A stretch of DNA of 17,539 nucleotides from an uncultured archaeon (lineage in GTDB: Archaea > Asgardarchaeota > Lokiarchaeia > Sigyniarchaeales > SOKP01), in assembly GCA_964493715.1 (NCBI GenBank), contig CAZBPC010000069.1, forward strand, positions 1 through 17,539. Reading direction: 5' to 3'. Shown one piece after another: positions 350 through 16,939 of the stretch; within the stretch, counting starts at the first letter, position 1; every line of letters begins with the position of its first letter. The translations under genes were made by a program, and so were the position numbers. Below the pieces are notes generated by a model that saw only the letters and a list, made by a program, of their open reading frames with translations, made no database searches and had not been told where the DNA came from.

Positions 350-1372
350 ATGATAAGGAAGAAACACAACATTAACATAGGATTAATAGGTAAAGGAAAA
401 GTTGGGACTTCTTTCCTCCAAATTCTAAATAAAAAAAATCCAATTATTATAAACTCAATTGAGTTTAATATTAAAGTTGTAGGAATTTTTGAACATGATG
501 GTGCGATTTTAAATGAAAAAGGAATAAATATAGAAAATTTGTTAAGTTTAGGAAAAAATTATCAAGCTCATGATAAGTGGAAATCGGGATATAGAGCATT
601 AGATTACATTGATAAAATTGGCCTTAATATAATGATCGAGACTACTCCAACAACTCCAGAAAACGGAGAACCAGCAATATCTCACATTATGAACGCTCTA
701 AATAATAATATAGATGTAATATCCTCTAATAAAGCCCCATTCTATCTTGAATATGAAAAAATTAAAAAAATAGCAGAGGATAGAATGCGATTAATTAGAT
801 ATGAAGCTACAGTAGCAAGTTGTGTTCCAATATTATCTATAAAAAGATATTTGCAAGGAAATGAAATAATTGGAATACGTGCTATCTTGAACGGAACTTC
901 AAATTATATCCTTAGTAAAATGTATGATGATGGTACTAGTTTTGGACAAGCTTTAAAAGAAGCTCAAGATTTGGGTTATGCTGAATCTGATCCTAATCTT
1001 GATATTAGGGGTTATGATGCCGCAGGGAAATTAGTCATTCTTGCAAATGAATTACTAGGCTATAATAGGACAATAAAAGATGTTGAAATTAAAGGAATTG
1101 AAAATATCAATGAAAAAGATATTGAAACAGCGAAATTAAATAATCAGGTTATCAAACATGTGTCATTTGCTAAGAATGAACATTTATATGTAAAACCACA
1201 ACATGTTGATAAATGTTCATATTTTAATATTAATGGCTCTTTAAATGTCATCGAACTAGAAACTAAAAATGCGGGTAAAATTGTATTATTAGGGCGAGGT
1301 GCAGGAGGTATCGAGGCAGCATTAGCAATACTGAATGATTTGATATCTATATTACAAGAAAGAGCAAAATAA
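350..1372 (+). CDS. hom: Homoserine dehydrogenase (monofunctional, no ACT domain)
   Basis: Rossmann GLIGKGKVG, then ETTPT, SSNKAP, YEATV, ILNGTSNYIL, EAQDLGYAESDP, DAAGKLVILAN (catalytic Asp/Lys) and GRGAGG. Confidence 0.95.
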   Translation: MIRKKHNINIGLIGKGKVGTSFLQILNKKNPIIINSIEFNIKVVGIFEHDGAILNEKGINIENLLSLGKNYQAHDKWKSGYRALDYIDKIGLNIMIETTPTTPENGEPAISHIMNALNNNIDVISSNKAPFYLEYEKIKKIAEDRMRLIRYEATVASCVPILSIKRYLQGNEIIGIRAILNGTSNYILSKMYDDGTSFGQALKEAQDLGYAESDPNLDIRGYDAAGKLVILANELLGYNRTIKDVEIKGIENINEKDIETAKLNNQVIKHVSFAKNEHLYVKPQHVDKCSYFNINGSLNVIELETKNAGKIVLLGRGAGGIEAALAILNDLISILQERAK

Positions 1373-1821: not shown

Positions 1822-2370
1822 ATGAGTTTTAATTTCAAAAATAAATTTAAGGGAACAGTATCTATCATTGGAGCAAGTGAAATTGACGAAAAAACAAGGC
1901 AAATTTCGATCGAATTAGGACGTTTACTTGCTCGAAATAATTATGCGGTGTCATGCGGAGGTCTTTCAGGTGTAATGGAAGCCGTTTGTCAAGGAGTAAA
2001 AGAAGAGGGAGGTCTTACAATTGGAATCATCCCATTTAAAGAAAAAGCCAAAGCAAATGAATATGTAGATATTGCTATTCCAGTTCCATTTTCTCAAGCA
2101 CGTAATGTTGTGGTCGTTTTGAGCGGAGATGTGTGCGTGGCAGTGGCTGGAAAGGCAGGAACATTATCAGAGATTTGTTTTGCTTGGATCTACGAAAAAC
2201 CGATAATAGGGCTTACTTGCGTGGAAGGATGGTCATCAAAAATAGCGGGACAACAACTAGATGACAGAAGAACTGATAAGATTCACGGTGCTGATACTCC
2301 TCAAGCGGTTATTGATAAATTAAATGAAATATTTACCCAAAATAAATTCAATCCTATAAAAAATATTTAA
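1822..2370 (+). CDS. TIGR00725-family / LOG (SLOG) Rossmann-fold nucleotide-binding protein
   Basis: IIGAS, CGGLSGVMEAV, GGLTIGIIP, ARNVVVV and GKAGTLSE (LOG GGxGTxxE-like motif). Confidence 0.9.
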   Translation: MSFNFKNKFKGTVSIIGASEIDEKTRQISIELGRLLARNNYAVSCGGLSGVMEAVCQGVKEEGGLTIGIIPFKEKAKANEYVDIAIPVPFSQARNVVVVLSGDVCVAVAGKAGTLSEICFAWIYEKPIIGLTCVEGWSSKIAGQQLDDRRTDKIHGADTPQAVIDKLNEIFTQNKFNPIKNI

Positions 2371-2380
2371 TTTCCTAATC

Positions 2381-3730
2381 ATGTTATACTCAACAAATAA
2401 ACGTTCTTCTAACGTGAACTTTAGAGAAGCTGTATTGAAAGGACAAGCTTCAGATATGGGGCTTTACATGTTTGAAAAGATCCCTTTCATTTCTCAAGAT
2501 GATATTTTTGAATTTAAGTCGTTAAATCTTAAAGAAATTGCATTTAAAATTCTCAACCCGTTTTTAAAGAATGATATTAAAGAAAAAACCTTAAAAGCCA
2601 TTATTAATAATGCACTTGACTTTCCAATTCCCACACACCCTATAACGGATAAAAATTTCTTATGTTATTTAGATAAGGGTCCAACTTGTAGTTTTAAAGA
2701 TGTTGGAGCAAGAATGTTAGCAAGCTTCATGGAACATTTTCTTATTGAAGAAGAAATAAATATTATTATTTTAACAGCAACTTCAGGAGATACAGGGGGT
2801 GCTGTAGCTCAAGCATTCCATAATAAGAAAAATGTTGAGGTAGTAGTCCTCTACCCAAAAAATGAAATTAGCCCTTTACAACGCAAGCAAATGACCACAT
2901 TAGGAAACAATATCACTGCTATTGGTATCAATGGAAAATTTGATGATTGTCAACAATTTGCAAAAAGTGCATTTGCTGATTCAGATTTATCACATTTAAA
3001 TCTAACTTCTGCTAATTCAATAAATATTGGTCGCTTATTACCGCAAGCAATATATTATTTTAAAAGTTATTCTGATATCGTCGAACAAAAAAATGAGGAT
3101 GTAATTTTTTCAGTACCTTCAGGAAATTTTGGAAACCTTACAGGAGGGCTAATCGCGAAGAAGATGGGATTGCCCGTAAAGAGATTTATTTCTGCAGTGA
3201 ATGAAAATGATGAATTTCCTACATTTTTAGAGACAGGGTTTTATAAAAAAGTAAACCCTTCGAGAGTATGTATTTCAAATGCCATGAATGTTGGTCATCC
3301 TTCAAACCTAGCTCGTTTAATTGATCTATACAATGGACAACTTGATGAGGAAGGGAATATGAGCATAAATCCAGACATTGATAAAATTAGAGATGAAATT
3401 TTATCGTATTCAATTACTGACAAAATTACTAAAGAGACCATTATTGAATTCAATAACAATTTTAATATTTTGATTGATCCCCATGGAGCTGTTGGATGGG
3501 CTGCTTTATTGAGATATCAGAAAGAATTTCCATCAGAAAAAGCGATTAAATCAATTAGTTTTGAAACAGCAGATCCAGCAAAATTCCCCGAGGAAATCAT
3601 AAAATTAACACATAAACATCCAAAAATTCCCAATTCATTGGAAATTATTCACCAAAAAAAAGAAGTCATCAATTCATTTGAAATAGGGGATTATCGTGAT
3701 TTTAAGACCTACTTACAAAAGAATTTTTAA
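2381..3730 (+). CDS. thrC: Threonine synthase, long bacterial/fungal-type (PLP-dependent)
   Basis: N-terminal YSTN...AVLKGQASDMGLY, GPTCSFKDVG (PLP Lys), ATSGDTGGA, SANSINIGRLLPQ, VPSGNFGNL, SNAMNVGHPSN, DPHGAV and TADPAKF. Confidence 0.96.
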   Translation: MLYSTNKRSSNVNFREAVLKGQASDMGLYMFEKIPFISQDDIFEFKSLNLKEIAFKILNPFLKNDIKEKTLKAIINNALDFPIPTHPITDKNFLCYLDKGPTCSFKDVGARMLASFMEHFLIEEEINIIILTATSGDTGGAVAQAFHNKKNVEVVVLYPKNEISPLQRKQMTTLGNNITAIGINGKFDDCQQFAKSAFADSDLSHLNLTSANSINIGRLLPQAIYYFKSYSDIVEQKNEDVIFSVPSGNFGNLTGGLIAKKMGLPVKRFISAVNENDEFPTFLETGFYKKVNPSRVCISNAMNVGHPSNLARLIDLYNGQLDEEGNMSINPDIDKIRDEILSYSITDKITKETIIEFNNNFNILIDPHGAVGWAALLRYQKEFPSEKAIKSISFETADPAKFPEEIIKLTHKHPKIPNSLEIIHQKKEVINSFEIGDYRDFKTYLQKNF

Positions 3731-3791: not shown

Positions 3792-3797
3792 AGGTGA
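3792..3797 (+). promoter_or_regulatory. Possible Shine-Dalgarno site (AGGTGA) for an in-frame TTG start at 3806
   Basis: AGGTGA matches part of the archaeal GGAGGTGA consensus and lies 8 nt before an in-frame TTG. Confidence 0.35.
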
Positions 3798-4780
3798 AAT
3801 TATTTTTGGAAATTCAATATTTATCAAAAGGAAAACAGCCAGAAAGACAAGATAAAGAAGAACCACATAAAATTCTCTTTACTGGTTTAGATACAGCAGG
3901 TAAAAGTACAATCATACTTGCAATTCAAAGAGAATTCTCAAAAATCGCGCTACTTAAACCCACTCGAGGTGCTCAACGCAGAATTTTTGAGTTTTTAGGA
4001 AAAGATATAGCAGAATGGGATCTAGGGGGTCAAATTTCATATAGAATTTCTTATCTTAAAAATCCAGGTAAATATTTTGATGGTACGGAAATTTTAATTT
4101 ACGTTGTTGACATACAAAACCAAGCAAGGATTCCTGAGGCAATAAGCTATTTAGAAGATGTTATAACGCAATTTAATAACCTTGAAATTAAACCACCTAT
4201 CTATGTCTTTTTCCATAAATGTGATCCCGCTCTCTTAAGGAATGCCATCAATGAAATGCAAACGATGAGAGTAGAATTAAAAGAGAAAATCAAGAATGCA
4301 GCTAACTATAAACAGCTCTATTTCTATGATACGTCAATATATAATCTTCCTAGTATAATTAAAGCAATGTCCGAAATTTTACTAAATTTATATCCTAAAT
4401 CTGAATTAATTGAGAAAACAATTAATGAGTTTGCTAGAAAAGTAGATTCTGAAGGAGTTGTCATGATTGATGATAATTCTTTAATCGTGGGAAGTTTCTA
4501 TAAGAATGAAGAAGTCAAAAATCTATTATCTGCATCTACTCCCTATTTTCTCACATTAAATGATAGCTTCCAATTCACTCAAATCCCCTTACCAGGGAAG
4601 GAACAAGAAGAAAATAACATGGTAGTTCAAAGATTTGGCCGAAACTTTGTATTTAAGCAAATTAAGCTAAAAGAAGGCAGTCCACCTTATTATTTAATAA
4701 TGTTAAAACAAGATCCTACCTTAAACGAGGAAGATTTTGATTCATTCGCTAATCTTCTCAAAGAAATTTTAAAGAATTAA
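3794..4780 (+). CDS. Rag/Gtr-like (Arf-related) small GTPase with C-terminal roadblock domain
   Basis: G1 GLDTAGKS, G2 PTRG, G3 WDLGGQ, G4 HKCD (His as in Rag HKxD), G5 TSIY. Followed by a helix-P-helix-strand segment (KAMSEILLNLYPKSELIEKTINEFARKVDSEGVVMID) resembling the start of the Rag C-terminal domain. The true start may be TTG at 3806 behind an AGGTGA SD-like site. Confidence 0.85.
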   Translation: MKLFLEIQYLSKGKQPERQDKEEPHKILFTGLDTAGKSTIILAIQREFSKIALLKPTRGAQRRIFEFLGKDIAEWDLGGQISYRISYLKNPGKYFDGTEILIYVVDIQNQARIPEAISYLEDVITQFNNLEIKPPIYVFFHKCDPALLRNAINEMQTMRVELKEKIKNAANYKQLYFYDTSIYNLPSIIKAMSEILLNLYPKSELIEKTINEFARKVDSEGVVMIDDNSLIVGSFYKNEEVKNLLSASTPYFLTLNDSFQFTQIPLPGKEQEENNMVVQRFGRNFVFKQIKLKEGSPPYYLIMLKQDPTLNEEDFDSFANLLKEILKN

Positions 4781-4929
4781 TAGGATTTTAGGATTAAAGA
4801 TTTTTTATATTTCTGATTTTTCTTATTAATTAAAATTAATAAATCAAGAGTTTTATTAATATTATACATAAAAACATGTATTTTAATACCAATTCGAATC
4901 AGAGAAGAAAAAATTAAAGAGAGATCTCA

Positions 4930-5931
4930 TTGATTATATGTAGTAATTGTGGCGCAACAAACAATGAAGCTAAAGGTCATATCTGTCGTAAATGTGGTGC
5001 CTTGTTACCAGTTACGACTAAACCTCCTCGTGTTAGAATTGAAACGAAAAAGCAACCAGTAAAAAAAGTTAGACAAACTCCATCGAAACCTCAAATTAAA
5101 CCTCAAGAGAAATCCATAAAACAACCAAAATCATTTGAGCTTCAAGAAATACCCAAAGTGAAGGTATTGCCAAGTAATGAACCCAAAGTCGAAGATAATT
5201 CAAGTGAAACTGAATCAGAAGAGTATTTCGATGATTTTAGTAAAGAAGAGGAAGAAGAGGAAATTGAAAGAGTAACATTAAAAGAAATCACTCCTGGCCC
5301 TTTCAAAGGCTCAATTATAGCACAAAAAAATGTGTATGGGGGAAATATAAAATCAAAAATAGAAAAACCAGACCATTCAATGAAATCAGCTAAATTGGAT
5401 GAAAATACTCTAAGTAAAGATTCTTTCATCCGTCAAAAACAGTTAGAACAAGATATGTCGAAAGTTTTGAAATTCCTCTCTGAAAAAATTAGCGTTAAAG
5501 GATTACCAAGGGATAAACCAGAAGAAAAAAGAGAAGTCAAGAAAGAAAAAGAATCGATACCACCAGCGAGCATGAACGAGATTCTAAGAAATCTCTTAAA
5601 AATTGATTTAAATATTGAAGCATCAGCAATTATTAAATCAGAAGGAACAATTCTTGCATCTGCGATCTCATCGCGCATATCTGATACACTTTTTGGTGTA
5701 ATCGGTCAAAATTTATATATGATTGGAAAAGATATTATAGAAGGATTAAATGCAGGTAAATTACAGAATATATCTGTTAGAGGGAGTGGAGGAGTATTAG
5801 ATTTAGCCCCTATTTCTCAAGATATGCTTTTAATTTTATTTTCTAACCCTCGAATAAAAAGTGGCATTATTTATTTTGCCGCTAGTATCGTAAAGAAACA
5901 AGTAAAACAATATTTGGGATTAAACGATTAA
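4930..5931 (+). CDS. Zinc-ribbon + low-complexity linker + roadblock/LAMTOR/MglB domain protein
   Basis: N-terminal CSNC...CRKCG, then a Pro/Lys-rich and Glu-rich linker. The last ~120 aa follow the roadblock pattern: ILRNLL..NIEASAIIKSEGTILAS, a helix, LNAGKLQNISVRGSGG, MLLILFS..IKSGIIYF. TTG start. Confidence 0.85.
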   Translation: MIICSNCGATNNEAKGHICRKCGALLPVTTKPPRVRIETKKQPVKKVRQTPSKPQIKPQEKSIKQPKSFELQEIPKVKVLPSNEPKVEDNSSETESEEYFDDFSKEEEEEEIERVTLKEITPGPFKGSIIAQKNVYGGNIKSKIEKPDHSMKSAKLDENTLSKDSFIRQKQLEQDMSKVLKFLSEKISVKGLPRDKPEEKREVKKEKESIPPASMNEILRNLLKIDLNIEASAIIKSEGTILASAISSRISDTLFGVIGQNLYMIGKDIIEGLNAGKLQNISVRGSGGVLDLAPISQDMLLILFSNPRIKSGIIYFAASIVKKQVKQYLGLND

Positions 5932-6738
5932 TGAATAAAAGTCTGACAATTGTTTTTGTATGAATAATTTATTAATTTTAATTGTTTTAAAATATGACAA
6001 GTTTGTTGTTAATTCTTGTAAAAACGAATTAAGTTGATAAATAGAAACCAGAGGTATGTTATTTTCATTAAATTTAATATGATTTTGTTCAAGACTTACC
6101 ATTACAGGGACTAAAACAAATGGAAACCTTTTTTCAATACTTTCTGAAGTTCCTAAAATATTTTGAACCATATCAGAAAAAATTTCTGGATTTAACTGTA
6201 ATGCAAGTGCCCGTTGATATTGATGATTTGCAGCTTTATTCATCGCGGAAAAAGAATCTTTATTCACCCACTGTTTGGCATCAAGTATTAAAATATAATG
6301 TTTAGATATTCCAACTACATCAATTTCGTATCTTTTTTGAGATGTTTTTATTTTATAATTCGAGCGATCAGAGAATCTAAAGTTTTTAGTTGTTTTGTAA
6401 TTATTCCTATTAAGAATTTCCTCAACTAATGCTTCAAATCCATTAAAATCAACCAATATTGACAATTTTACAATATCTTCTTCTAAATATCGAATACTTT
6501 CAACAATAAATTTGATTTTGTCTATTACTATGTAATTTTTATAATTCCCTTTTTGAATACAAATGGATTTAAAATTGAGTAAATATCCTCTAATCTCGGA
6601 TTCATCATTACCTTTAAAAAAATGTACCTCTGAAATTCCAACCCATACTTCCGTCACTTTAGTATCCGTTCCTTTCAAGATTTTATATATTTCTGAAAAA
6701 AATTGTTTTATGGTCTTTATAGATAACGATAGTTTCAT
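5920..6738 (-). CDS. PD-(D/E)XK restriction-endonuclease-like protein (Mrr/NERD-like)
   Basis: FEALVEEIL...YEIDVVG...LILDAKQW gives the E..D..(D/E)xK catalytic pattern. Its 3' end overlaps the convergent roadblock gene by 12 nt. Confidence 0.75.
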   Translation of the reverse strand: MKLSLSIKTIKQFFSEIYKILKGTDTKVTEVWVGISEVHFFKGNDESEIRGYLLNFKSICIQKGNYKNYIVIDKIKFIVESIRYLEEDIVKLSILVDFNGFEALVEEILNRNNYKTTKNFRFSDRSNYKIKTSQKRYEIDVVGISKHYILILDAKQWVNKDSFSAMNKAANHQYQRALALQLNPEIFSDMVQNILGTSESIEKRFPFVLVPVMVSLEQNHIKFNENNIPLVSIYQLNSFLQELTTNLSYFKTIKINKLFIQKQLSDFYSLIV

Positions 6739-6949
6739 AGTATTTATTCTATCATTACCATAAAATAAGAAAGGGAGGGTAAAAATTAAATGAAAAATCG
6801 AGGAAATTTACTATTATTCTCAATAAATTAGATGAAAATCTACATATCATCATATTCTAAACACTAACTAGTTCATTAATAATTTTCTTTTTTAATGTAG
6901 ATAAATATAATACTTCAGAAATAAATGAATTAAAGAGAATTATTATAAA

Positions 6950-8740
6950 ATGAATCTTCTACCAAGAGTATTCAAGAAGGGGGATGTTGAAGAATTTGAA
7001 CCCTCTAAAATAATGGACAGCATTATTCAAGAAACAGGTGTGGATGAAGAAAATGCTAGAAAAATCACGGAACTTGTTGTTAGAAGAATCATTAGCTCTA
7101 ACATGAAATTTTTATCCGGACCTCATATTAGAGAAATTGTCTGTTCAATACTTTCAGAAAATCAATACGAGCAAGAACGAAAACTTTACACTCGTATTGG
7201 AATGCCTTTAATGGACTATGAAAAAATCCTTGAAGTCAGTCAAAATAATTCATCAGAGAGAATTATTAATCCAGAAAAGATCCATCATTGGGCTGCCAAT
7301 CAACTAGCGGAAGAGTATACCCTTCTCCGAATACTTAATGATGAAGAATCAAAAGCACACTTGTTTGGTGATTTATATATTCATCAGCTTAAATATTTCG
7401 ACTTACGACCTTATAATCAGTATTGGGATCCTCGATTAATTCTAGTACATGGATTACCACCAATTAAAAACTATAATTTGACTTGTAAGTCAAAACCAGC
7501 AAAAAATTTAAGAGAAGCCGTTGATCAGCTTGCTAATTGGTTAGGAATGGTACAGACAGAATTCAGTGGTAATCAAGGACTTGAATTTATCACAGTATTT
7601 CTTGCCCCCTATATTCAAGGATTAAGTGACTACGAAATAAAAGAAATAATGAAACGATTTATTTTCAGCATAAATTATTTATCGACTTCTTCAGGGAAAA
7701 ATTATTTAAAGTCTTCTCTTTCATGTTCGACTGGAATTATACCTGCATTGTTAGATGAACCCGCAATTGGTCCGGGTGGGAGTAAACTAGGTAATTATGA
7801 TTCTTATAAAAAAGAAAACACAAAATTATTTGATATAATAACGCAAATTTACACTGAGGGTGATGATAATAATTGTTATTTCCCTTATCCTGAGCATCTA
7901 ATTTATTTTAACGAGAAATGGTTAGCTGAGTTTAAAGAACAATATGAATCAATCTGTAAAGAAGTGTTAAAATATCAAACTCCTAGTTTTATTAATATCA
8001 ATCGGCATAAAATACTTAATAAAATGATGCAGACGTTGCCAAATTCCTATCTCAATCATGGGGTTCTTCAAAAGATATCGTTAAATTTACCTCGATATGC
8101 CTTTTCCAATCAAGACGAAACTAAATTTCTTGAATTTCTAAAAACCAAATTAGAGACTTGTTTTGAAATTTTAGATAAGAAGTATACTATTATAGGACAA
8201 CGATTAAAAACGGGTCATTTACCATTATGTAGTGGTTGGTTAGAGAATCATCAATTATTTAATCTTGAAAACCAAGAATTATGTATTGGATTTGTCGGAT
8301 TAAATGAAGCTGTTAAAATCTTGACAAATTCTGAATTACAAGAAACAGACACGGCATTAAAATTAGGAGAAAAAATAGTGAAACAAATGTATGATTATTG
8401 TGAAGAGCGATCCAAGAATAATGGAAAACATTATTCTTTAATTAACTCTTCATCTAAAGGAGCAATTATGCGATTTTTACGTCTGGATTCAAAACACTTT
8501 CCCAAATTAGCTCAAGAAAATTATCAAAAATCTTCCCATTTTAGAGATATAGATACTCTTGAATTAATCGACAGGATTAAAAAACAAGGTAGATTTCATC
8601 CATGGATTTTAAATGATGCAATAGTGGAAATTTCGTTGAGGCATCATAAAGAAAATCTACAAAATCCAGAAGATTTAATGAAAATTTTATCCTATAGTTG
8701 TACAAGCACTGAAATCTTTAGCCTAAAATTTCTCTCTTGA
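6950..8740 (+). CDS. Class III (anaerobic) ribonucleotide reductase NrdD-like protein with ATP cone; predicted catalytically inactive and C-terminally truncated
   Basis: ATP cone (RVFKKGDVEEFEPSKI...LSGPHIREIV), YTRIGMP, AHLFGDLYIH, KPAKN, FSGNQG, FLAPY, SLNLPR, IGFVGLNEAV and GRFHP all match NrdD. No Cys at the RPxC/NC site, no xCR finger loop, and no C-terminal CxxC or RxxGY. Confidence 0.85.
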   Translation: MNLLPRVFKKGDVEEFEPSKIMDSIIQETGVDEENARKITELVVRRIISSNMKFLSGPHIREIVCSILSENQYEQERKLYTRIGMPLMDYEKILEVSQNNSSERIINPEKIHHWAANQLAEEYTLLRILNDEESKAHLFGDLYIHQLKYFDLRPYNQYWDPRLILVHGLPPIKNYNLTCKSKPAKNLREAVDQLANWLGMVQTEFSGNQGLEFITVFLAPYIQGLSDYEIKEIMKRFIFSINYLSTSSGKNYLKSSLSCSTGIIPALLDEPAIGPGGSKLGNYDSYKKENTKLFDIITQIYTEGDDNNCYFPYPEHLIYFNEKWLAEFKEQYESICKEVLKYQTPSFININRHKILNKMMQTLPNSYLNHGVLQKISLNLPRYAFSNQDETKFLEFLKTKLETCFEILDKKYTIIGQRLKTGHLPLCSGWLENHQLFNLENQELCIGFVGLNEAVKILTNSELQETDTALKLGEKIVKQMYDYCEERSKNNGKHYSLINSSSKGAIMRFLRLDSKHFPKLAQENYQKSSHFRDIDTLELIDRIKKQGRFHPWILNDAIVEISLRHHKENLQNPEDLMKILSYSCTSTEIFSLKFLS

Positions 8741-8960
8741 ATTTGAATGAATAATTAACCATTTCAAAATATATTCAATAAATTAAGCTTAACAAATATT
8801 TAATAATAGGTTCTGCTATTATAAATAAAAAGTTAACACATACTTTTATAGGATTACTGAGAGAATCATTAGATAATTTGGCACGAGATTTAAGGAGTCT
8901 TTCTAATCACTATATCTTAATTGCACTCATCTCTTACATTTATGCTAAGGTTTAGATAAT

Positions 8961-10373
8961 ATGATCGACCAAAAACCGGAAATTATAAAGGCAGTTGTAT
9001 TCAGTATTTTTGATGAAGATGGTCCAACACCAAAAATCTATTGGCCTAGAGACATGGAAGAATCAGCCAGATTGCTTATTGCCATGAAGACTATATCAAT
9101 TTTAATGGGAGATGCAATTTACCAAGATGGCTCATCTACCAGTGAAATTAACTATTTTGGAATTTTACCTTTCCCAGATCTGAAATTAAATGGTCTAACA
9201 TACTTTTTTTTAATACCTGATTCTCAAGCACGTGGTAATGCCAAAGCTTCTACAATAACAATATTGATTGATGAATCTAATCGAGTATTTTTCTATGAAA
9301 ATATGAAATATCTCCGAATAATTGTAGATAAGGCTGCATCTAAAATCCAGGTAACAAAGGATTTTAATGAAATAGAGAAAATTGTTGAAAGTTTGAAGGA
9401 AGAACTTATAGAATTTACAAAAGATTTAGGAGATATTTTATCAACTAAACGCCAACTAAAGATTCTATTCACGGGGATTGATGGAGCAGGAAAAACTAGC
9501 TTTCTTTTGGGAGTTAAAAAAAGATATTCGGAAATTATTAAGGTTTTACCAACAAAGGGTGTTTCTAGATCACAAGAACACATATTTGAGCAGCAGAACT
9601 CACAGATTTCAATATGGGATTTGGCAGGTCAGAAATCATATCGTGATAAATTTATCGAAGAAAGCAAATTTTATTTATATAATATTGATTTAATGTTTTA
9701 TTTTATTGATATTCAAGATGAAGAAAGGATTGAGGAATCTCTTAAATTATATAAAGAAATAATTTATAACTTAAAGGAGTTAAATGAGTTTCCCTCAATA
9801 ATTATTTGCTTAAATAAACATGATCCTGACTTAAAAGACACCAAACCAATGAGAAAAAGAATAAAAAACGTTACTATTGATATAGAAAAACAATCTGAGG
9901 GATTTTTCTTCAAGATTTTTTACACATCTATATTTGATCACTGGTCCTTGATTTCAGCATATAGTTTTGGTCTTAGTCAACTGAGTCCAAATCGTGAATT
10001 ATTTGTAAACCAATTAAAGCAGTTTGCAATGAATACAAATTCGGAAGCAATTTTGCTACTCAATGATAATGGCATTATATTATCCAGTTATTCAAAATCT
10101 GAGATTTCCGATACAGTGTTTGAAATATCCGCTCCACATTATCAAACATTATTTAAGACGTTTAAAGAGTTTAAGTTATTGAAAAAAGATTATCTCATAT
10201 CATCTGGAATTACTGAGGATTCAAAAAGCATGATTTTTAAGCGGATAATTGTCGATCAATATAATCTTTATCTCCTATTATACGTAGAAGAAGAACAAGG
10301 GATAAAAAAAGTAGAAAAAAATTTATCTGATTTTGTTAAAAATATAAAAGATTTGATTAAAAACTATATTTGA
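8961..10373 (+). CDS. Fusion: uDENN/longin (folliculin/SMCR8-like) + Rag-like small GTPase + roadblock-like C-terminal domain
   Basis: N-terminus has VVFSIFDEDGPTP..YWP and YFFLIPDSQARGNAKASTITILID. GTPase motifs: G1 GIDGAGKT (aa 172-179), PTKG, WDLAGQ, NKHD, TSIFD. C-terminal SAYSFGLSQLSPNRELFVNQLKQFA...EAILLLNDNGIILSSY. Confidence 0.85.
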   Translation: MIDQKPEIIKAVVFSIFDEDGPTPKIYWPRDMEESARLLIAMKTISILMGDAIYQDGSSTSEINYFGILPFPDLKLNGLTYFFLIPDSQARGNAKASTITILIDESNRVFFYENMKYLRIIVDKAASKIQVTKDFNEIEKIVESLKEELIEFTKDLGDILSTKRQLKILFTGIDGAGKTSFLLGVKKRYSEIIKVLPTKGVSRSQEHIFEQQNSQISIWDLAGQKSYRDKFIEESKFYLYNIDLMFYFIDIQDEERIEESLKLYKEIIYNLKELNEFPSIIICLNKHDPDLKDTKPMRKRIKNVTIDIEKQSEGFFFKIFYTSIFDHWSLISAYSFGLSQLSPNRELFVNQLKQFAMNTNSEAILLLNDNGIILSSYSKSEISDTVFEISAPHYQTLFKTFKEFKLLKKDYLISSGITEDSKSMIFKRIIVDQYNLYLLLYVEEEQGIKKVEKNLSDFVKNIKDLIKNYI

Positions 10374-10418
10374 TTCATTTTTTATTAAGATTTAGAAATA
10401 AAAAACAAAAAAAAGGAC

Positions 10419-11672
10419 TTAATAAATCCATTTAATTCGTTTCTTTCTTCTCCTTGAAATCACGATATAAGTTACAACGAAGATGACACCCACTATGGAA
10501 CTTAAAGCAATAATCCAGATTAATTGATAATCAGGAAGTAGATTAGTTCCAAGTACAGTAACTTTGAGAGAATATTGATAACTTTTATCTGAAGTACTTT
10601 GATATACAATGCAAGGATGGGGGAACTCACTTTCGTCAGGTAACATAGGAATGTGAAACCAAGCACCAACATTTAAATTTAATCGTAGATAATCAACTTT
10701 ATTGGCGTAATTTCCTCCTGAATTCCAAGTAGGGTCACAAGCTATCCAACCCATATTTGGCACATAATATTCGACCCACGCATGACCTAAAAACGTGCTT
10801 TCTGATTGATCAGTTAGATGATAATTCCATTGCTGTCCAATATATGGCCTCAATGATGGATTTGCTGATATTACATATCCCGTAACTTTTCTTGCGGGAA
10901 TACCTTGACATCTAAGAAGCGTTATCATTAAAGTAGAATATTCACTGCAATCTCCTCGGGAATGATTAAGTGCCCAAGAAGCTCCCATTTCTTGAGGTGG
11001 AAGTGTATCATCATATGTCAAATAGTCTGAAACCCAATTACAAATTTTTGTGGCTTTTGTGATAGGGTTATCTTCTAGATTAACTATACTATTTGAAGCG
11101 GCTATTATACTTGGATCGGTTGTATTATAATATGTTTCTGAATGATTACAGTATAAATCAAACATCTCATCTGAAGTATCATATAGACCAATTTGACTCA
11201 TATTTGCATTAACAAATGAAATTTCATTTAATTTTACATGATATTTTTGGCTTACGATGATTGACTCAGTTGGTGCTAACGTATTATTAAAAACGTCGTA
11301 AGTATTATTAAATCGATCCTGTAAAGTAAAAGGAGCTTCGCTTGTCCCGATTATTTTACTAAAAAGTAAGGTACTCTCTTGATATGGTGGAACAAAGTGA
11401 GTCAACCTATCATTTGGTTGGCGATCATCTAATCGAGAGAATTGGAACCAATATTGACCACTTGCTGGTGAATTATGTGTCAAAGTGAAGTTAATCTCTA
11501 TTTCATAAGTTACACTTTGAACAATTTCATAATTAGATACTCCATTTTCAGAAGATAAGTCAATTCTGCCATTATTTGGCAAATTTCCATTATAATCTTG
11601 ATAAAAAAACGGAACTAAGATTGACATTAATAGCAACGTTAATAATAGGAAAGATTTTTGCGAACTTTTCAT
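10419..11672 (-). CDS. Membrane-anchored extracellular transglutaminase-like (papain-fold) protein
   Basis: Catalytic triad motifs GDCSEYS, GHAWVE and CDPTW, plus LRCQGIPARKVTGY. Hydrophobic N-terminal signal/TM. C-terminal TM followed by RRRKKR. Many N-x-S/T sequons. Confidence 0.9.
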   Translation of the reverse strand: MKSSQKSFLLLTLLLMSILVPFFYQDYNGNLPNNGRIDLSSENGVSNYEIVQSVTYEIEINFTLTHNSPASGQYWFQFSRLDDRQPNDRLTHFVPPYQESTLLFSKIIGTSEAPFTLQDRFNNTYDVFNNTLAPTESIIVSQKYHVKLNEISFVNANMSQIGLYDTSDEMFDLYCNHSETYYNTTDPSIIAASNSIVNLEDNPITKATKICNWVSDYLTYDDTLPPQEMGASWALNHSRGDCSEYSTLMITLLRCQGIPARKVTGYVISANPSLRPYIGQQWNYHLTDQSESTFLGHAWVEYYVPNMGWIACDPTWNSGGNYANKVDYLRLNLNVGAWFHIPMLPDESEFPHPCIVYQSTSDKSYQYSLKVTVLGTNLLPDYQLIWIIALSSIVGVIFVVTYIVISRRRKKRIKWIY

Positions 11673-11832
11673 CGTTAAGAAAGCTAATTTATTTTATTAA
11701 TGTTATAAAAATTAATATTTTTATCTTTATTCATTATTGAAATAAACTTGACTTGATTTATTGAGATTCCGGATTTTTCTTTTTTGTCATTTTAACAATA
11801 GAAAACATTCTTAAGGGCATGGTCTTATTATC

Positions 11833-12507
11833 TTGATAAGATTTGAAATTTTTCTGATTAGGACTTTGATTTATAAAATTTATTTAATTGATGGAGATAA
11901 CGGCATTTCTATACTTGATACAAGTTTTAAAGAGTTTCAGAAAGATAAAATAGATGATAATTTAATTCCTGGTTTCTTTAATGAAATTAATAAAATTATT
12001 GATAACATTCAAGATGCAATGGCCAAAGGAAAAAAAGAAACTGAATTTGTAAGGATGTTAGAATCAGAATATTCTGTTATATTGATTTATTATCACGCTG
12101 CTTCTAGAATTCTATTTTGCAGTATATCAGATGCAGATGATGATACTGAAAAATTAGTTGAAGTAATTCACAAAATTGCGAATAGGTTTTGGAAAAAACA
12201 CAAATCAGATATCACGAATTTTCGAACCACTACTGAAAAAAGTGCGTTTAAAACTATCGTCGCAGATATTGAAAATTTATGCCACGGGGGGCATATTGCC
12301 GAGGTTTTCCCAAAATTGATGATTGGAAAAGGCGTGTTAGAGAAAATCTTGTCAATGGGCATGATAAATGATTTTGAATATTATGTTGCGTTGAAATGTA
12401 CGGGTGATAATTCGCCTTTAAATATCTCTAGGATAATGCAAAGACCTAAAACTAAAATCATGGATTCATTAAAAAATCTACATCAATTAGATATTATCAC
12501 CATGTGA
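11833..12507 (+). CDS. Longin domain + C-terminal winged-helix protein (NPRL2-like architecture)
   Basis: IYKIYLIDGDNGISIL...DDNLIPGFFNEI...LFCSISDADDD..KLVEVIHKIANRF follows the longin pattern. The tail YVALKCTGDNSPLNISRIM...IMDSLKNLHQLDII looks like a wHTH. The in-frame TTG at 11866 may be the real start. Confidence 0.7.
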   Translation: MIRFEIFLIRTLIYKIYLIDGDNGISILDTSFKEFQKDKIDDNLIPGFFNEINKIIDNIQDAMAKGKKETEFVRMLESEYSVILIYYHAASRILFCSISDADDDTEKLVEVIHKIANRFWKKHKSDITNFRTTTEKSAFKTIVADIENLCHGGHIAEVFPKLMIGKGVLEKILSMGMINDFEYYVALKCTGDNSPLNISRIMQRPKTKIMDSLKNLHQLDIITM

Positions 12508-12627
12508 GATATAGTACCTCTTTTAATAAAAGAATTCTCCCGATTTTTTCAGATTTAAATCGAAAAAAATAAAAGCTTTAAAGGCTTATTTTAAATACTT
12601 TAAAATAAAATCGAAGAGTGCTTGAAT

Positions 12628-13236
12628 ATGGAAAGTAAAGATGCCTTAAAATCTGTTGTAAAGTCACCCGCAAGAGATGCTCACTTAAAGGCAGGGAAAG
12701 GTTTTTCATTATCAGAAATAGAAGCATCAGGACATTCTCTAGAAGTGATCAAAAAACTAAATGTTAAAATAGATTACTTTCGAAAATCCTCTCATGATAA
12801 TAATGTTAATGTGCTTAAATCTATTAAGATAACTACTTCTAAAGATAAAAAGCGGGAACCATTTGTAAAGAAAGAAAAGAAAAGGACCCCATTTAAACCA
12901 AAAACTAAGAAAACTAAGAAAAAACCTACTCCGGCAACTGTGGTAACAGAACAAAAGGCAGAAGTGATATCAAAGGAAAAAGATAAAAAGGAAACCAAGA
13001 AGGAAATTAAAAAGCAACCATCTGAAATAAAACCCGTTGAAACTGGTAATACGCCACTTGTCAAGTTATCTAAACTTGGTCCAACCACTTCATCAAAATT
13101 TAATGAGATTGGAGTTACTTGTGTGGAAGATCTTCTTAAAGAAAACCCCGAAGAATTAGCTTCATTAATCAAGGGATGTTCTGCAGAAAAAATATCAAAA
13201 TGGATTGAAGAAGGAAAGGAACTTATTTCGAAATAG
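12628..13236 (+). CDS. rpl13e: Ribosomal protein eL13 (L13e) fused via a Lys-rich linker to a helix-hairpin-helix domain
   Basis: VKSP...KAGKGFSLSEIEASG...LNVKIDYFRKSSHDNNVNVLK matches the L13e RxGRGFSxxEL...VDxRR.S...NV..LK pattern. C-terminal LSKLGPTTSSKFNEIGV..VEDL...IKGCSAEK..KWIEEG is HhH/DUF4332-like. ATG at 12628 is preferred over TTG at 12622. Confidence 0.85.
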   Translation: MESKDALKSVVKSPARDAHLKAGKGFSLSEIEASGHSLEVIKKLNVKIDYFRKSSHDNNVNVLKSIKITTSKDKKREPFVKKEKKRTPFKPKTKKTKKKPTPATVVTEQKAEVISKEKDKKETKKEIKKQPSEIKPVETGNTPLVKLSKLGPTTSSKFNEIGVTCVEDLLKENPEELASLIKGCSAEKISKWIEEGKELISK

Positions 13237-13340: not shown

Positions 13341-13838
13341 TTGGAATATAATTATTATGTGTATGAAAAATCTGAAGCTAATATAAAAATTAACAGCATG
13401 CCTAAATGGTTTCAGGAGATTACGTTCGAAGGAAATGAGAATGAAGGAAGTTTGATCCTGCATTCTAATAATGCTTATGATGAATATTGGGGAGCAAATG
13501 CAAAAATGGATATTTCCTGGGAAAAAAAAATACGGGGATCATTTTTCTTCTCAAAAGAAGTACAGCGTTCAATCGATACATATAATGCTATCGGTTTGGT
13601 GGTATTGAATAAAGAGAATACATGGCATTTATCTCATGAATTCACATATTGGTATGGGAGACGCGTGAAAATGTTGCATAAACGACACTACCCTGCCAAA
13701 AGTGTTCACGGAATTTTTTATTGTGATATGACTGAGCGATTATTCAATATTCATACGGAGATCATTGACAAATTTTATGAGAATTTCAAATCTTTCATAG
13801 AAAAAAGCTATGTTTCTTTCATATGTCATGGGGAATAA
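13341..13838 (+). CDS. Hypothetical protein (165 aa)
   Basis: Uninterrupted ORF with a globular, aromatic-rich composition. GAGGG SD-like site before a TTG start. Confidence 0.75.
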   Translation: MEYNYYVYEKSEANIKINSMPKWFQEITFEGNENEGSLILHSNNAYDEYWGANAKMDISWEKKIRGSFFFSKEVQRSIDTYNAIGLVVLNKENTWHLSHEFTYWYGRRVKMLHKRHYPAKSVHGIFYCDMTERLFNIHTEIIDKFYENFKSFIEKSYVSFICHGE

Positions 13839-14563
13839 AATTCATTATTTTTTTCTGCTAAAATGAAATAATTGTCTTTTCCATTGGGTCCTCCTAATTT
13901 GCTCAATCGTAAAATTTTAAATCCAACTAATAATCTTTTAAGTTCATTTTTTGAGAATAGATGATAATAGCGATTAAATGTAATTTGTTTACTTGAAACA
14001 GTCCACGGAATTAAAATATCTCCAAATTCATGCAGACCAAATGATTCTTGCCTCTTCTTATATTTGAATGATAACTTTTGTTTCATGAATTCAAAAAAAA
14101 AATAATTTCTATACTTCTTTTGGAATTTTCTCCATACTGAAATGATAATATATCCATTTTTTCTAAGCATTAAGTTAGAAAACTCCATTATAAGACTCCG
14201 TTCTGTAATATTCATAACATGATGAATAGAAGCGATTGAAAATATAGAATTGATAGAGCTAGGTCTTATAGGAAGTGCTAACATGTCACTCAATAAAAAA
14301 TGGATATTACGTTCTCGTAAATCTTTCCTCTCCCTAGCTAAATGTAAGAAATTTAGTGATTTATCTATTCCAATTACGGAATTGTTAGTTTTTTTTAATA
14401 ATGGCAAATTTCTTCCATTTCCACATCCTAAATCAATAATTATTCCGTTAAATTTATAATCTTGATTGTCCAAATCTTCCAAAAAGATCTTTAATGGAAT
14501 CCAAGGATTCTTTCTTTTATTATCATAGTCCTTGGCAAAACCGTCATAACAAGATTGCTTCAT
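13826..14563 (-). CDS. Class I SAM-dependent methyltransferase, Trm9/ALKBH8-like (putative tRNA U34 carboxymethyl methyltransferase)
   Basis: YDGFAKDYDNKRKNPW, DLGCGNGR, SIASIHH, ISVW, DILIPW and RYYHLFSKNEL parallel the Trm9/ALKBH8 motifs (Y..IA.HF..TR..PW, SIAVIHH, RYYHVF..GEL). Confidence 0.85.
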   Translation of the reverse strand: MKQSCYDGFAKDYDNKRKNPWIPLKIFLEDLDNQDYKFNGIIIDLGCGNGRNLPLLKKTNNSVIGIDKSLNFLHLARERKDLRERNIHFLLSDMLALPIRPSSINSIFSIASIHHVMNITERSLIMEFSNLMLRKNGYIIISVWRKFQKKYRNYFFFEFMKQKLSFKYKKRQESFGLHEFGDILIPWTVSSKQITFNRYYHLFSKNELKRLLVGFKILRLSKLGGPNGKDNYFILAEKNNEFYSP

Positions 14564-14718: not shown

Positions 14719-16350
14719 ATGGAACTATTCAATGAGTTATTGACAGCACTATCTCAATCATTACGAATAGAGATTTTAGATTATTATCAGCGATTTTACT
14801 CCTATACTTTAAATTTGCTTGAGCACAAAAATATTGATATTGGTAATTCAATCGTTCGAAATGACGAAAAAAAAAATATAGGAATAATTAATAGTATTGT
14901 TGAAACTATTGCTTCTGCTTTAAATTCAATTGGTATCACATCTAAATCAATTGATTTTAAAGAAAACCTAACTAAGGAATTTTTATTAAGAAGTAATAAT
15001 GAAATAAAGGATTATAAAGAACTTTTTGATATTATTGGAAAAAAATTTATTAATATACACCTTTTCAATATTATCTTCGAGTATATCATTGATATTGATA
15101 CAGAAAAATTGGATAATTTAGATCTCTTTGATTTGCTTCCTGATAATTTTAAAACAAAGTTAAATGAATTTAAAAAAAACTTACATTTTCAAGATAGAGA
15201 TAAATTTAAAGTTAAATCTTTATACCCGAGTATAGGGAAATTATTTGACTCAACTAGCTTGAAAATTATGGATGAAATAAATTCTAATAATGATTTAGAT
15301 ATAGATATACTTAAAAAACTGCACGATGCCAAGGAAAAGAATATTGAAGCATTAAAGAATCCAATTTTACAAGATACTCGACAATATTCTTTGGAAGAAG
15401 GGCAAAAAAATTCTGTCATAACACCCGATCTAAGTTGCAGATCGTTAAATGGAGATTATTATTATGATCTTTTTGGTAATCTTCCATTACTTAAAAGTGA
15501 AATTATAAAATTAGTGAAAATCGACTTTGATAATTTAATATCCATAGCAAAAAACCCTGAATTCCTGGATTTGGAAAGTCTATTTTATTATGTAAGCATA
15601 CATCAGATATTTGGTTTACAAATACCCTTTAGTACAGGAGAAATTATTAATATTTTAACTCGTTATATAAGTGGAAAGATCTTTAGCACTGGTATGTATC
15701 ATATCTCAAATCCTTTAAGCAACTTTTTCGGTCTTTCAATTATATCTGAATTAAAATTAATAAACGATATTGAGATTGTCGATTTACTGGATATTGAGAT
15801 GTTCCTCGAAAACGAACTTAAATTATATTTACCTCAGAAATTATTTCTAAATTATTTCACCTTAATGAGCCTTAGAATTCTTGAGAAGTGGGGAGTAATT
15901 CTAATGGAAAAAAAGCACTTAGTATCAGAGCAGATCAATTATAAACAAATAAATAAGGATGAAAACAACCTTCCACTAGATTTGTTATGTCAATTGAGTT
16001 TAATTAAATTGCTAGATGATAAAACCGATTTAACATTGCTTAAAGAGTTATATAAAGATGACTTAAAACTATTAATTTCTAAAAAAGGGTTAGTTAATGA
16101 TAACTTAACTGATTCAGCTAGAGTTTTATTAATATTTAAAATACTAGGCATAAATTCTAAAGATGATTTATCAATTTCTATTCTCTTAAATTCAATATTA
16201 ACTAATTCTGAAGTTTTTCATAACTCAAATAAGATGAATAAATTCCATTGGAGTAATGATATTTGTGCATTAAAAGTAGAATTGAGAATGACTTTTTGGA
16301 TGCTCATCGCCCTTTTAGAGTATGAAGACATGCTTGAAACTACAAATTAA
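14719..16350 (+). CDS. Hypothetical protein; C-terminal half resembles degenerate alpha/alpha-barrel (prenyltransferase-like) helical repeats
   Basis: 543-aa ORF with recurring helices LESLFYYVSIHQIFG, PLSNFFGLSIISEL, LNYFTLMSLRIL, LTDSARVLLIFKILG and LRMTFWMLIALL. Confidence 0.6.
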   Translation: MELFNELLTALSQSLRIEILDYYQRFYSYTLNLLEHKNIDIGNSIVRNDEKKNIGIINSIVETIASALNSIGITSKSIDFKENLTKEFLLRSNNEIKDYKELFDIIGKKFINIHLFNIIFEYIIDIDTEKLDNLDLFDLLPDNFKTKLNEFKKNLHFQDRDKFKVKSLYPSIGKLFDSTSLKIMDEINSNNDLDIDILKKLHDAKEKNIEALKNPILQDTRQYSLEEGQKNSVITPDLSCRSLNGDYYYDLFGNLPLLKSEIIKLVKIDFDNLISIAKNPEFLDLESLFYYVSIHQIFGLQIPFSTGEIINILTRYISGKIFSTGMYHISNPLSNFFGLSIISELKLINDIEIVDLLDIEMFLENELKLYLPQKLFLNYFTLMSLRILEKWGVILMEKKHLVSEQINYKQINKDENNLPLDLLCQLSLIKLLDDKTDLTLLKELYKDDLKLLISKKGLVNDNLTDSARVLLIFKILGINSKDDLSISILLNSILTNSEVFHNSNKMNKFHWSNDICALKVELRMTFWMLIALLEYEDMLETTN

Positions 16351-16939
16351 GGATTTCTTTTAAATATCCTTTTGCTTTAGGCTTAGTTTTAGTTTTTTTT
16401 AATTTTTGACTCCAAGATTGTACAAACTTCTCATTTTCTACTAAATTCTCGAGCACACTTTTTCCCAAATGAATCCATTTCTCGATATCAATGTAAGGAT
16501 ATTTTTGATCTAATCCCTGACAATATTCATTTCCTTTAATAGTAATATTAATTTTAACACGTTTCTGGTTGTCATCAACATATTCAAATGTAAAAGGGAA
16601 TGTCCTGCAAAAATTAGGCCTTATCTTATAAATCCTACATTTACTTTCATTAGTATTATAGAAATAGCAAATTCCTTCTGGATTCTTCTTAAGTCCTGGA
16701 AATGATAATCCTCTTTCAGTCATAATTGGGGTTATTACCATCTTGGATATATCTGACTCGGTGATTTTATTCTCAAATATATAAAAACTGATAACTTCAA
16801 GTAATTCATCTAAAGTTAATTTTAATCCTTTAGATAAGCGAAATATGTCAGTATGAGTTACATTTACAAATGTATTTTTATCTGTACAACAAGATCCACA
16901 TCTAATGCAAGAAAATCTAAATTTTGGTAAATTGCTCAT
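16340..16939 (-). CDS. YkgJ-family CxxCxxCC cysteine-cluster (putative Zn/Fe-S) protein
   Basis: FSCIRCGSCC, then ICYFY...CRIY..RP..CRTFPF and YCQG. Confidence 0.9.
   Translation of the reverse strand: MSNLPKFRFSCIRCGSCCTDKNTFVNVTHTDIFRLSKGLKLTLDELLEVISFYIFENKITESDISKMVITPIMTERGLSFPGLKKNPEGICYFYNTNESKCRIYKIRPNFCRTFPFTFEYVDDNQKRVKINITIKGNEYCQGLDQKYPYIDIEKWIHLGKSVLENLVENEKFVQSWSQKLKKTKTKPKAKGYLKEILNL

Follow-up and report, generated by a model that had tools for sequence, protein, structure and literature searches.

The 17,539-nucleotide contig CAZBPC010000069.1 (GenBank assembly GCA_964493715.1), which we analyzed over its whole length and call the window below, comes from an uncultured archaeon of the Lokiarchaeia (order Sigyniarchaeales) and carries two co-oriented pairs of genes, each of which joins a Rag-type GTPase to a likely regulator. 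The first pair comprises RagS, a GTPase of the Rag/Gtr family, followed by ZnRB, a protein with a zinc ribbon and a roadblock-like domain. In the second pair, LngRag, a Rag-type GTPase with an N-terminal longin, is followed by LngHTH, a protein with a longin-like domain and a winged helix. With a probability of about one half, we read these two pairs together with LngRag2, a sister paralogue of LngRag, as a Rag-type GTPase switch module that resides in an old and slowly rearranging syntenic block of the Lokiarchaeia. This reading is carried by the recurrence of the arrangement in related genomes and by the longin of LngRag, which bears a sequence signature of the kind found in the GTPase-activating protein (GAP) longins of FLCN, NPRL2, and SMCR8.

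An initial annotation of the window had proposed that five plus-strand genes within about 9 kb form a forerunner of the eukaryotic Rag/Ragulator/FLCN/GATOR1 nutrient-signaling machinery. All five open reading frames (ORFs) are found at the coordinates and on the strands annotated, as are the two opposite-strand genes that interrupt them, which are real ORFs with Pfam matches, and the inventory of Rag, roadblock, and GAP-longin types is a fair description of the domains encoded. The window is the whole of one contig (C69) of an assembly of 3.68 Mb in 160 contigs (G+C 26-34%). Domains were called with Pfam and NCBIfam profiles, profile searches against the PDB, and predicted models compared by Foldseek.

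Conservation of the gene neighborhood

Some co-location of such genes is to be expected in a genome with this many GTPase, roadblock, and longin paralogues (39 matches to PF04670, 14 of them at 58 bits or more, 19 matches to Robl_LC7, and four longins of the LngRag type), and conservation is therefore the better test. We used 119 genomes as an order-level sample and mapped all proteins of the window onto 114 fetched loci; a further search for related loci returned only ones with a LngRag 60-92% identical and did not widen the sample. Gene order, which the initial annotation had named beforehand as a test, has been maintained throughout the family and, in part, throughout the order, and the clustering stands on that count. 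Since the orthologous arrangement recurs in relatives, it is more than a chance arrangement in one genome.

In 79 of 81 loci, RagS is followed on its own strand by ZnRB, with a median gap of 188 bp between tblastn hits, and in 83 of 89, LngHTH is found on the strand of LngRag and at most 3 kb downstream of it. Where the transglutaminase-like gene that separates LngRag and LngHTH in the window is absent (17 loci), the two are 93-299 bp apart (median 123). The pairs themselves are linked as well, with RagS at most 8 kb upstream of LngRag in 67/74 loci, and RagS, ZnRB, LngRag, and LngHTH stay together while the genes between them vary. At the locus L131 from a second family (genus g5 of family f2), the order is RagS, ZnRB, LngRag, an opposite-strand transglutaminase-like gene, and LngHTH, even though LngRag is only 31% identical there. 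Genus g9 has RagS, an opposite-strand NERD-like gene, LngRag, an opposite-strand transglutaminase-like gene, and LngHTH, without ZnRB.

Across the order, LngRag was found in 103/119 genomes, with a single match per genome in all but three, LngHTH in 97 and ZnRB in 95 (both mostly one per genome). RagS has a best match at E<=1e-55 in 108 of the genomes, a threshold that also picks up paralogues. As a side observation, several loci with the same gene order and a LngRag 65-69% identical (L052, L071, L073, L076, and others) stand in records whose titles name differing phyla, i.e., Hodarchaeota, Hermodarchaeota, Thorarchaeota, and in one case a "Nanopelagicaceae bacterium"; the labels in the titles of such metagenome-assembled genomes (MAGs) look unreliable.

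A GAP-signature longin fused to a Rag-type GTPase

The fusion of an FLCN-type longin to a Rag domain proposed by the initial annotation is borne out in LngRag. Its best Pfam family is Gtr1_RagA (E 2.5e-23), ahead of Arf, and a weak match to Folliculin (E 7.3e-4) is also present. A query profile built from LngRag and LngRag2 sequences retrieved from the PDB first two solved chains described as "GTP-binding protein" (8yl2, E 7.7e-58; 8zla, 1.8e-39), next RagA (2e-23) and Gtr1 (about 1e-20), and then Arl3 (6e-16) and Arf (about 1e-16). The alignment with RagA spans both the G domain and the C-terminal half (query profile 165-439, chain 29-301), as does that with Gtr1, and on such sequence comparison the C-terminal halves of LngRag and RagS are of roadblock type. 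The nucleotide-binding motifs of LngRag (P-loop, DxxGQ, and [NH]KxD) are invariant or nearly so in 47 orthologues.

The N-terminal 150 residues of LngRag were modeled with a mean predicted local distance difference test (pLDDT) score of 86.7 as a beta-beta-alpha-beta-beta-beta-alpha-alpha fold, which Foldseek matches to longin chains with a probability of 1.00. The top match is the crystal structure of a Lokiarchaeal longin (8yqg; E 6e-8, template-modeling (TM) score 0.74), and the best eukaryotic matches are chains of GATOR1 (1e-4), the Lst4 longin (1.5e-3), DENND1B, FLCN-FNIP2, and C9orf72-SMCR8. The sequence profile of this longin retrieved nothing significant from the PDB (best E 0.16; 8yqg itself at 0.91).

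PMC12290439 places a GP motif at the start of longin beta-strand 2 and describes it as limited to the GAP longins C9orf72, SMCR8, FLCN, and NPRL2. In the LngRag model, G21-P22 stands at the start of beta-strand 2 (strand E21-28), and we count it as the GP motif because its position agrees with that description. Both this motif and R91-G92 are invariant in all 47 LngRag orthologues, and GP is also kept in 21/21 aligned sequences of LngRag and LngRag2. In the model, R91 falls into the loop that joins strands E76-86 and E94-104. The longin of LngRag thus carries, by motif and modeled fold, a GAP signature of the FLCN/NPRL2/SMCR8 type, and its GAP role is putative. An FLCN-type DENN domain is absent from LngRag, in which the longin is followed by the Rag G domain instead. 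Outside the order, a longin of this type was detected in 3 of the 118 genomes searched (profile search, E<=1e-6).

LngRag2 and other paralogues

Among the paralogues, LngRag groups with LngRag2 as its sister (support 99/96). The LngRag2 gene of relatives (product about 500 aa) stands upstream of LOG/RagS at a distance of a few kb and on the opposite strand; the protein keeps the GP motif and has no arginine at the R91 position in the aligned sequences of genus g1. In the assembly of the window, its gene lies at the start of contig C47 (1703-3205), which, judging from the relatives, probably abuts C69. The same contig also bears genes for a 351-aa longin plus GTPase protein and for a small GTPase (C47:11228-12136 and C47:12980-13504). 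All four longin genes of the LngRag type (A2-type) lie on one contig in six relatives (G018, G019, G053, G012, G061, and G055), and in several relatives they are packed into about 25-35 kb, which suggests an extended island of GTPase genes upstream of the window.

Family f4 has a stand-alone, arginine-less longin of this type, encoded 1.4-1.9 kb from LngRag and on the opposite strand (L047:10380-10904 and L048:10349-10858, both +; 169-174 aa). The motif reads GP in one copy and GA in the other, and neither contains the ARG motif. Elsewhere in the genome of the window, two adjacent genes on the minus strand (C79:4522-4932 and C79:5217-5867) encode a Rag-like pair that falls into one three-member paralogue clade (98/93). 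By analogy with the MK-D1 pair of Tran et al., these may be a tandem-duplicated candidate heterodimer.

RagS and ZnRB

RagS was correctly annotated as a Rag-like GTPase, with Gtr1_RagA as the top Pfam family (E 3.7e-27), ahead of Arf. A solved structure exists for a close relative, since the nearest chain, 8yl2, aligns end to end over residues 19-325 (E 8.4e-88), and the RagA and Gtr1 chains of the PDB follow at about 1e-9. The P-loop (G31-K37), W75-Q80 (with DxxGQ), and H141-K142-x-D144 are invariant in 36 orthologues. At G4, RagS and those LngRag orthologues that are more distant share HKxD, the form typical of Rags.

The N-terminus of ZnRB is a CxxC...CxxC ribbon read directly from the sequence. 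It is followed by a charged and probably disordered linker of roughly 200 residues that varies in length, such that the ORFs of genus-level loci range from 309 to 356 aa. The C-terminal domain matches Robl_LC7 over nearly the whole profile (3-88 of 91) at 17.2 bits, below the 23-bit cut-off, and the annotation as a roadblock protein accordingly stands for a roadblock-like C-terminal domain, short of a formal family assignment. The same Pfam family matches 12/13 ZnRB orthologues at E<=5 (best E 1.4e-4), and a ZnRB profile matches the PDB roadblock chains 7f8m and 7yh1 at E 0.005-0.012. The top matches of that profile to "Cake" chains were rejected as artefacts of repeats, scoring about 3 bits per domain. 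Mean column identity is 81% over the last ~120 residues. The whole protein is about 50-57% identical in genus-level relatives, i.e., the roadblock-like end is far better conserved.

LngHTH, a probable longin plus winged-helix protein

The family of LngHTH is small, comprising 73 representative clusters in a set of 1.84 billion proteins, and all named relatives in the protein atlas and the homologue search are called "hypothetical protein". The ORF is open from 11833, and orthologues begin at 11866, the probable start. The protein was modeled as beta-beta-alpha-beta-beta-beta-alpha-alpha followed by four C-terminal helices, with a pLDDT of 65.5 overall and above 90 in the winged helix. Its best Foldseek matches are SEA/GATOR1 chains (subunits not named) over about 260 columns at E 1e-3 and a TM score of only 0.3, and MglB and MglC are among the matches at E 0.03-0.09. 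The window protein itself has a weak Pfam match to TrmB. In distant relatives, the N-terminal domain matches Clat_adaptor_s above the cut-off (25.2 bits) and, weakly, Longin and Fuz_longin_1, and the C-terminal domain matches the winged-helix families TrmB, MarR, and HTH_24. In one distant relative, P0194 (336 aa), the longin-like N-terminal domain is joined not to a winged helix but to a GTPase of the Ras family (Ras E 2e-44).

Of the initial annotation of LngHTH as an NPRL2-like longin and winged-helix protein, the domain composition probably holds and the likeness to NPRL2 does not. The GP motif is absent, with "DGDNG" at this position, and an NPR2 Pfam match was found neither in LngHTH nor in any of the 10 relatives scanned out of 73. 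A search of representative sequences gave no full-coverage match of the size of eukaryotic NPRL2, and hhalign found no relation between the LngHTH profile and the longin of LngRag (probability 0.8%). An NPRL2-like identity is thus unsupported at the level of motifs and families. Prediction of the complex of full-length LngRag and LngHTH, with its own alignment for each protein and without controls, returned interaction prediction scores from aligned errors (ipSAE) of 0.01, 0.47, and 0.01 against a mark of 0.32, a result that favors neither side.

Interleaved and flanking genes

The remaining genes of the window (Table 1) include several that we consider passengers of the block, i.e., the NrdD-like, NERD-like, and transglutaminase-like genes as well as hom, LOG, and thrC. 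The annotated pseudo-NrdD is, to judge from its profile matches, a stable truncated paralogue of NrdD. It matches PF13597 (NRDD) at E 1.7e-68 and 231.8 bits, covering only profile positions 7-495 of 562, and reaches 212.9 bits against TIGR02487 (profile 2-517 of 581), below the cut-off of 326. These matches stop early, and the C-terminal glycyl-radical and zinc region is absent. One cysteine aligns with the CC pair of Thermotoga maritima NrdD, of which one is presumably the radical-site cysteine. A canonical NrdD (722-aa frame) is encoded elsewhere in the genome (C34:13489-15234). We ruled out that the truncated copy is a decayed pseudogene, as orthologues keep open frames of 596-606 aa. Its membership in the set was not borne out. 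A full copy stands just upstream of LngRag in 55/96 loci, and none was detected among the mapped loci of family f2. In 5 of the 12 genus-level loci first mapped, and in others, this place is held by a short opposite-strand ORF (129-141 aa) that resembles only the N-terminal ATP-cone region of the NrdD-like protein.

The NERD-like gene, with Pfam matches to NERD (E 4e-4) and DUF234 (E 1.3e-3) that are both below cut-off, is found upstream of LngRag on the opposite strand in 93/96 loci and is missing from the compact locus L131. The transglutaminase-like protein (Transglut_core, E 9.5e-26) has hydrophobic segments at both termini, and its gene separates LngRag from LngHTH in 66/83 loci. Downstream, the annotation as eL13 corresponds to an L13e-like match just short of the Pfam cut-off (23.7 versus 24.9 bits), and the "Trm9-like" candidate could be resolved only to a generic class-I methyltransferase. 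For o165 and o543 there was no Pfam or NCBIfam match, yet their place in the block is kept across the family, and that of o165 also in family f2. Upstream of RagS, hom and thrC are present in some relatives only, and elsewhere LOG directly precedes RagS. We rejected this adjacency as meaningful on account of its variability among close relatives, and the link to amino acids seen by the initial annotation is not supported.

Table 1. Features of the window, with positions counted from its first nucleotide.
Feature	Position	Strand	Description
hom	350-1372	+	
SLOG/LOG-like	1822-2370	+	
thrC	2381-3730	+	
RagS	3794-4780	+	Rag/Gtr-family GTPase, 328 aa; G domain and C-terminal roadblock-type half
ZnRB	4930-5931	+	Zn-ribbon, long charged linker, C-terminal roadblock-like domain (about 5554-5928)
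NERD/DUF234-like	5920-6738	-	Persistent opposite-strand neighbor
NrdD-like	6950-8740	+	Paralogue without C-terminal glycyl-radical region; variable passenger
LngRag	8961-10373	+	Longin with putative GAP signature (8961-9410), Rag/Gtr G domain (about 9459-10106), roadblock-type C-terminal half
Transglutaminase-like membrane-anchored protein	10419-11672	-	Variable insert between LngRag and LngHTH
LngHTH	11866-12507 (ORF opens 11833)	+	Longin-superfamily N-terminal domain and TrmB/MarR-type winged helix
L13e-like with HhH domain	12622-13236	+	Just below Pfam cut-off
o165	13341-13838	+	165 aa, no assigned family
Class-I methyltransferase	13826-14563	-	
o543	14719-16350	+	543 aa, no assigned family
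CxxCxxCC protein	16340-16939	-	

A switch module or a historical cluster

If the proteins of the two pairs cooperate, the Rag-type proteins would dimerize via their roadblock halves, as eukaryotic Rags do. The arginine-bearing longin of LngRag would then serve as a GAP element, either built in or acting in trans, and would pair with a longin that lacks the arginine, i.e., that of LngRag2 or, in family f4, the stand-alone one. ZnRB and LngHTH would be platform or effector proteins. A more explicit scenario, in which LngRag with its GP motif and arginine pairs with LngRag2 via both longin and roadblock halves, ZnRB and LngHTH read the state of this pair, and the winged helix signals to DNA, is improbable in all its parts together. 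If true, it would represent a single-polypeptide forerunner of the principle that a longin GAP acts on a Rag, and a switch resembling FLCN-FNIP and the Rag heterodimer with a transcription-factor output.

Several observations weigh against a switch module. At the level of the proteins, LngHTH was modeled with low confidence, ZnRB falls short of the roadblock cut-off, and R91 is a candidate arginine finger proposed from its conservation and its position in a modeled loop. The loci compared come mostly from one family, some contigs are counted twice, and kin are not independent. The L13e-like, o165, methyltransferase, o543, and CxxC genes are as faithfully syntenic as the GTPase genes. In genus g2 and at the g8 locus L143, the transglutaminase-like, methyltransferase, and CxxC genes stay beside LngRag, while RagS and LngHTH do not, and the loci L045, L046, and L143 of family f2 likewise have the transglutaminase-like and methyltransferase genes near LngRag without RagS or LngHTH. 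RagS of genus g2 accompanies LngRag2, either on a different contig or at a distance of about 87 kb, and no LngHTH was detected in this genus. LngRag, RagS, and LngHTH are unlinked in family f4, with LngRag and LngHTH of G033 2.27 Mb apart. The idea that the set is specifically retained is thus not supported, given that flanking genes unrelated to GTPases are equally syntenic and that g2 and f4 separate RagS and LngHTH from LngRag. Furthermore, the sister relationship of LngRag and LngRag2 and the sharing of one contig by the LngRag-type longins mean that local duplication can explain part of the clustering.

These points feed the main competing explanation, which is that the clustering is historical, i.e., that Rag-like and longin paralogues arose by local duplication in a slowly rearranging block and serve separate pathways. 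We regard this as a possible if somewhat doubtful account. The equal synteny of unrelated genes, the sister paralogues and the four longins on one contig, the adjacent C79 pair in its well-supported clade, the many PF04670 and Robl_LC7 matches in the genome, and the loss of linkage in g2 and f4 all fit it, as does the statement of Tran et al. (2024, PMC10933270) that MK-D1 does not, as a rule, have its GTPase genes in operons with those for roadblock or longin proteins. However, ZnRB and LngHTH are not GTPase paralogues, yet they are co-oriented with their partners at short gaps across 12 genera of family f1 and in genus g5 of family f2, and the genes in between have been gained and lost without separating RagS from ZnRB or LngRag from LngHTH.

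Gene pairs of a GTPase and a roadblock protein are the classical prokaryotic arrangement, as reportedly described by Koonin and Aravind in 2000, and the two pairs could accordingly be of an MglA/MglB type, with ZnRB as GAP or guanine nucleotide exchange factor for RagS and LngHTH in this role for LngRag, and with functions in membrane or cytoskeletal polarity or in protrusions rather than in metabolism. The appearance of MglB and MglC among the Foldseek matches of LngHTH is in line with this idea, and roles of such proteins in protrusions or vesicles have been proposed by Tran et al. (PMC10933270). We nevertheless find it unlikely because RagS and LngRag score as Gtr1_RagA and not as MglA and have roadblock-type halves of their own, and because the window shows no genes for a cytoskeleton or for motility.

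Very unlikely, finally, is the proposal of the initial annotation that the genes constitute a proto-Rag/Ragulator/FLCN/GATOR1 platform for amino-acid sensing tied to hom/thrC and the translation genes, with the pseudo-NrdD as a member: the domain inventory does parallel the eukaryotic system, RagS is indeed preceded here by hom, LOG, and thrC, and NPRL2-like and FLCN-like components of Asgard archaea have been discussed in such terms (Liu et al., bioRxiv 10.1101/2020.10.19.343400), but the hom/thrC and NrdD-like genes are variable neighbors, the window shows neither a LAMTOR1-like anchor nor a TOR kinase or a transporter, and LngHTH has a winged helix that resembles prokaryotic DNA-binding types in place of the hallmarks of NPRL2, such that a link to nutrient signaling or amino-acid sensing is unsupported.

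Whichever way this is settled, the block is instructive. If the proteins of the switch module cooperate, the pairing of Rags with longin GAPs would be older than eukaryotes and would have had an output other than TORC1. Otherwise, the block is a caution against inferring function from synteny in slowly rearranging Asgard genomes.

Comparison with known systems

The components described here are already known from Asgard archaea, and what is modestly new is the conserved neighborhood, on the one hand, and the GAP signature of the longin fused to this Rag domain, on the other, neither of which we found in the passages searched. For MK-D1, Tran et al. (2024, PMC10933270) describe longin-GTPase-roadblock architectures and an operonic Rag-like pair modeled as a heterodimer via its roadblock domains. 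Liu et al. (bioRxiv 10.1101/2020.10.19.343400) report Rag-family GTPases fused to longins, NPRL2-like proteins of Thor and of a few Loki MAGs, and a conserved operon of LAMTOR1-like, Rab-like, and DENN genes in which the GTPase is not a Rag, and they note that most genes for eukaryotic signature proteins have no conserved neighborhoods. An Asgard RagGtr group has been defined by Vargova et al., whose preprint mentions neither neighborhoods nor synteny. The literature searched did not mention the PDB codes 8YL2, 8ZLA, and 8YQG, and a search for Asgard longins with a winged helix and GTPases gave only a paper on the endosomal sorting complex required for transport (ESCRT). Asgard longins with GP motif and arginine are described in PMC12290439, which leaves the GTPase family that they act on as a question. 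LngRag, with essentially one gene per genome across the order, and the neighboring RagS, ZnRB, and LngHTH offer a small and concrete set of proteins for this question.

NrdD-like shares a homologous core barrel (PF13597) with the class III ribonucleotide reductase NrdD and differs from it in scoring below the equivalog cut-offs. ZnRB resembles Ragulator/LAMTOR proteins and MglB in its C-terminal (sub-threshold) roadblock-like domain and in having its gene beside that of a GTPase, and it departs from them in its zinc ribbon, its long charged linker, and the lack of a LAMTOR1-like lipid anchor. RagS and LngRag share with eukaryotic Rag/Gtr proteins (RagA-D, Gtr1/2) and the Asgard "RagGtr" group the succession of a G domain and a roadblock-type C-terminal half. 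However, eukaryotic Rags lack the N-terminal longin of LngRag, and the genomes studied here carry at least 14 strong paralogues each.

The longin of LngRag is comparable to FLCN, NPRL2, and SMCR8 and to the Asgard "FLCN/SMCR8-type" longins of PMC12290439 in its predicted fold, the GP motif at strand 2, and the conserved arginine, though its sequence similarity to the eukaryotic proteins is marginal. Unlike FLCN and NPRL2, LngRag has neither a DENN domain nor the C-terminal domain of NPRL2, and its longin is fused to the very GTPase on which it might act. The combination of an arginine-bearing LngRag with an arginine-less LngRag2, or with the stand-alone longin of family f4, is nonetheless reminiscent of the asymmetric partnerships of FLCN with FNIP, NPRL2 with NPRL3, and SMCR8 with C9orf72.

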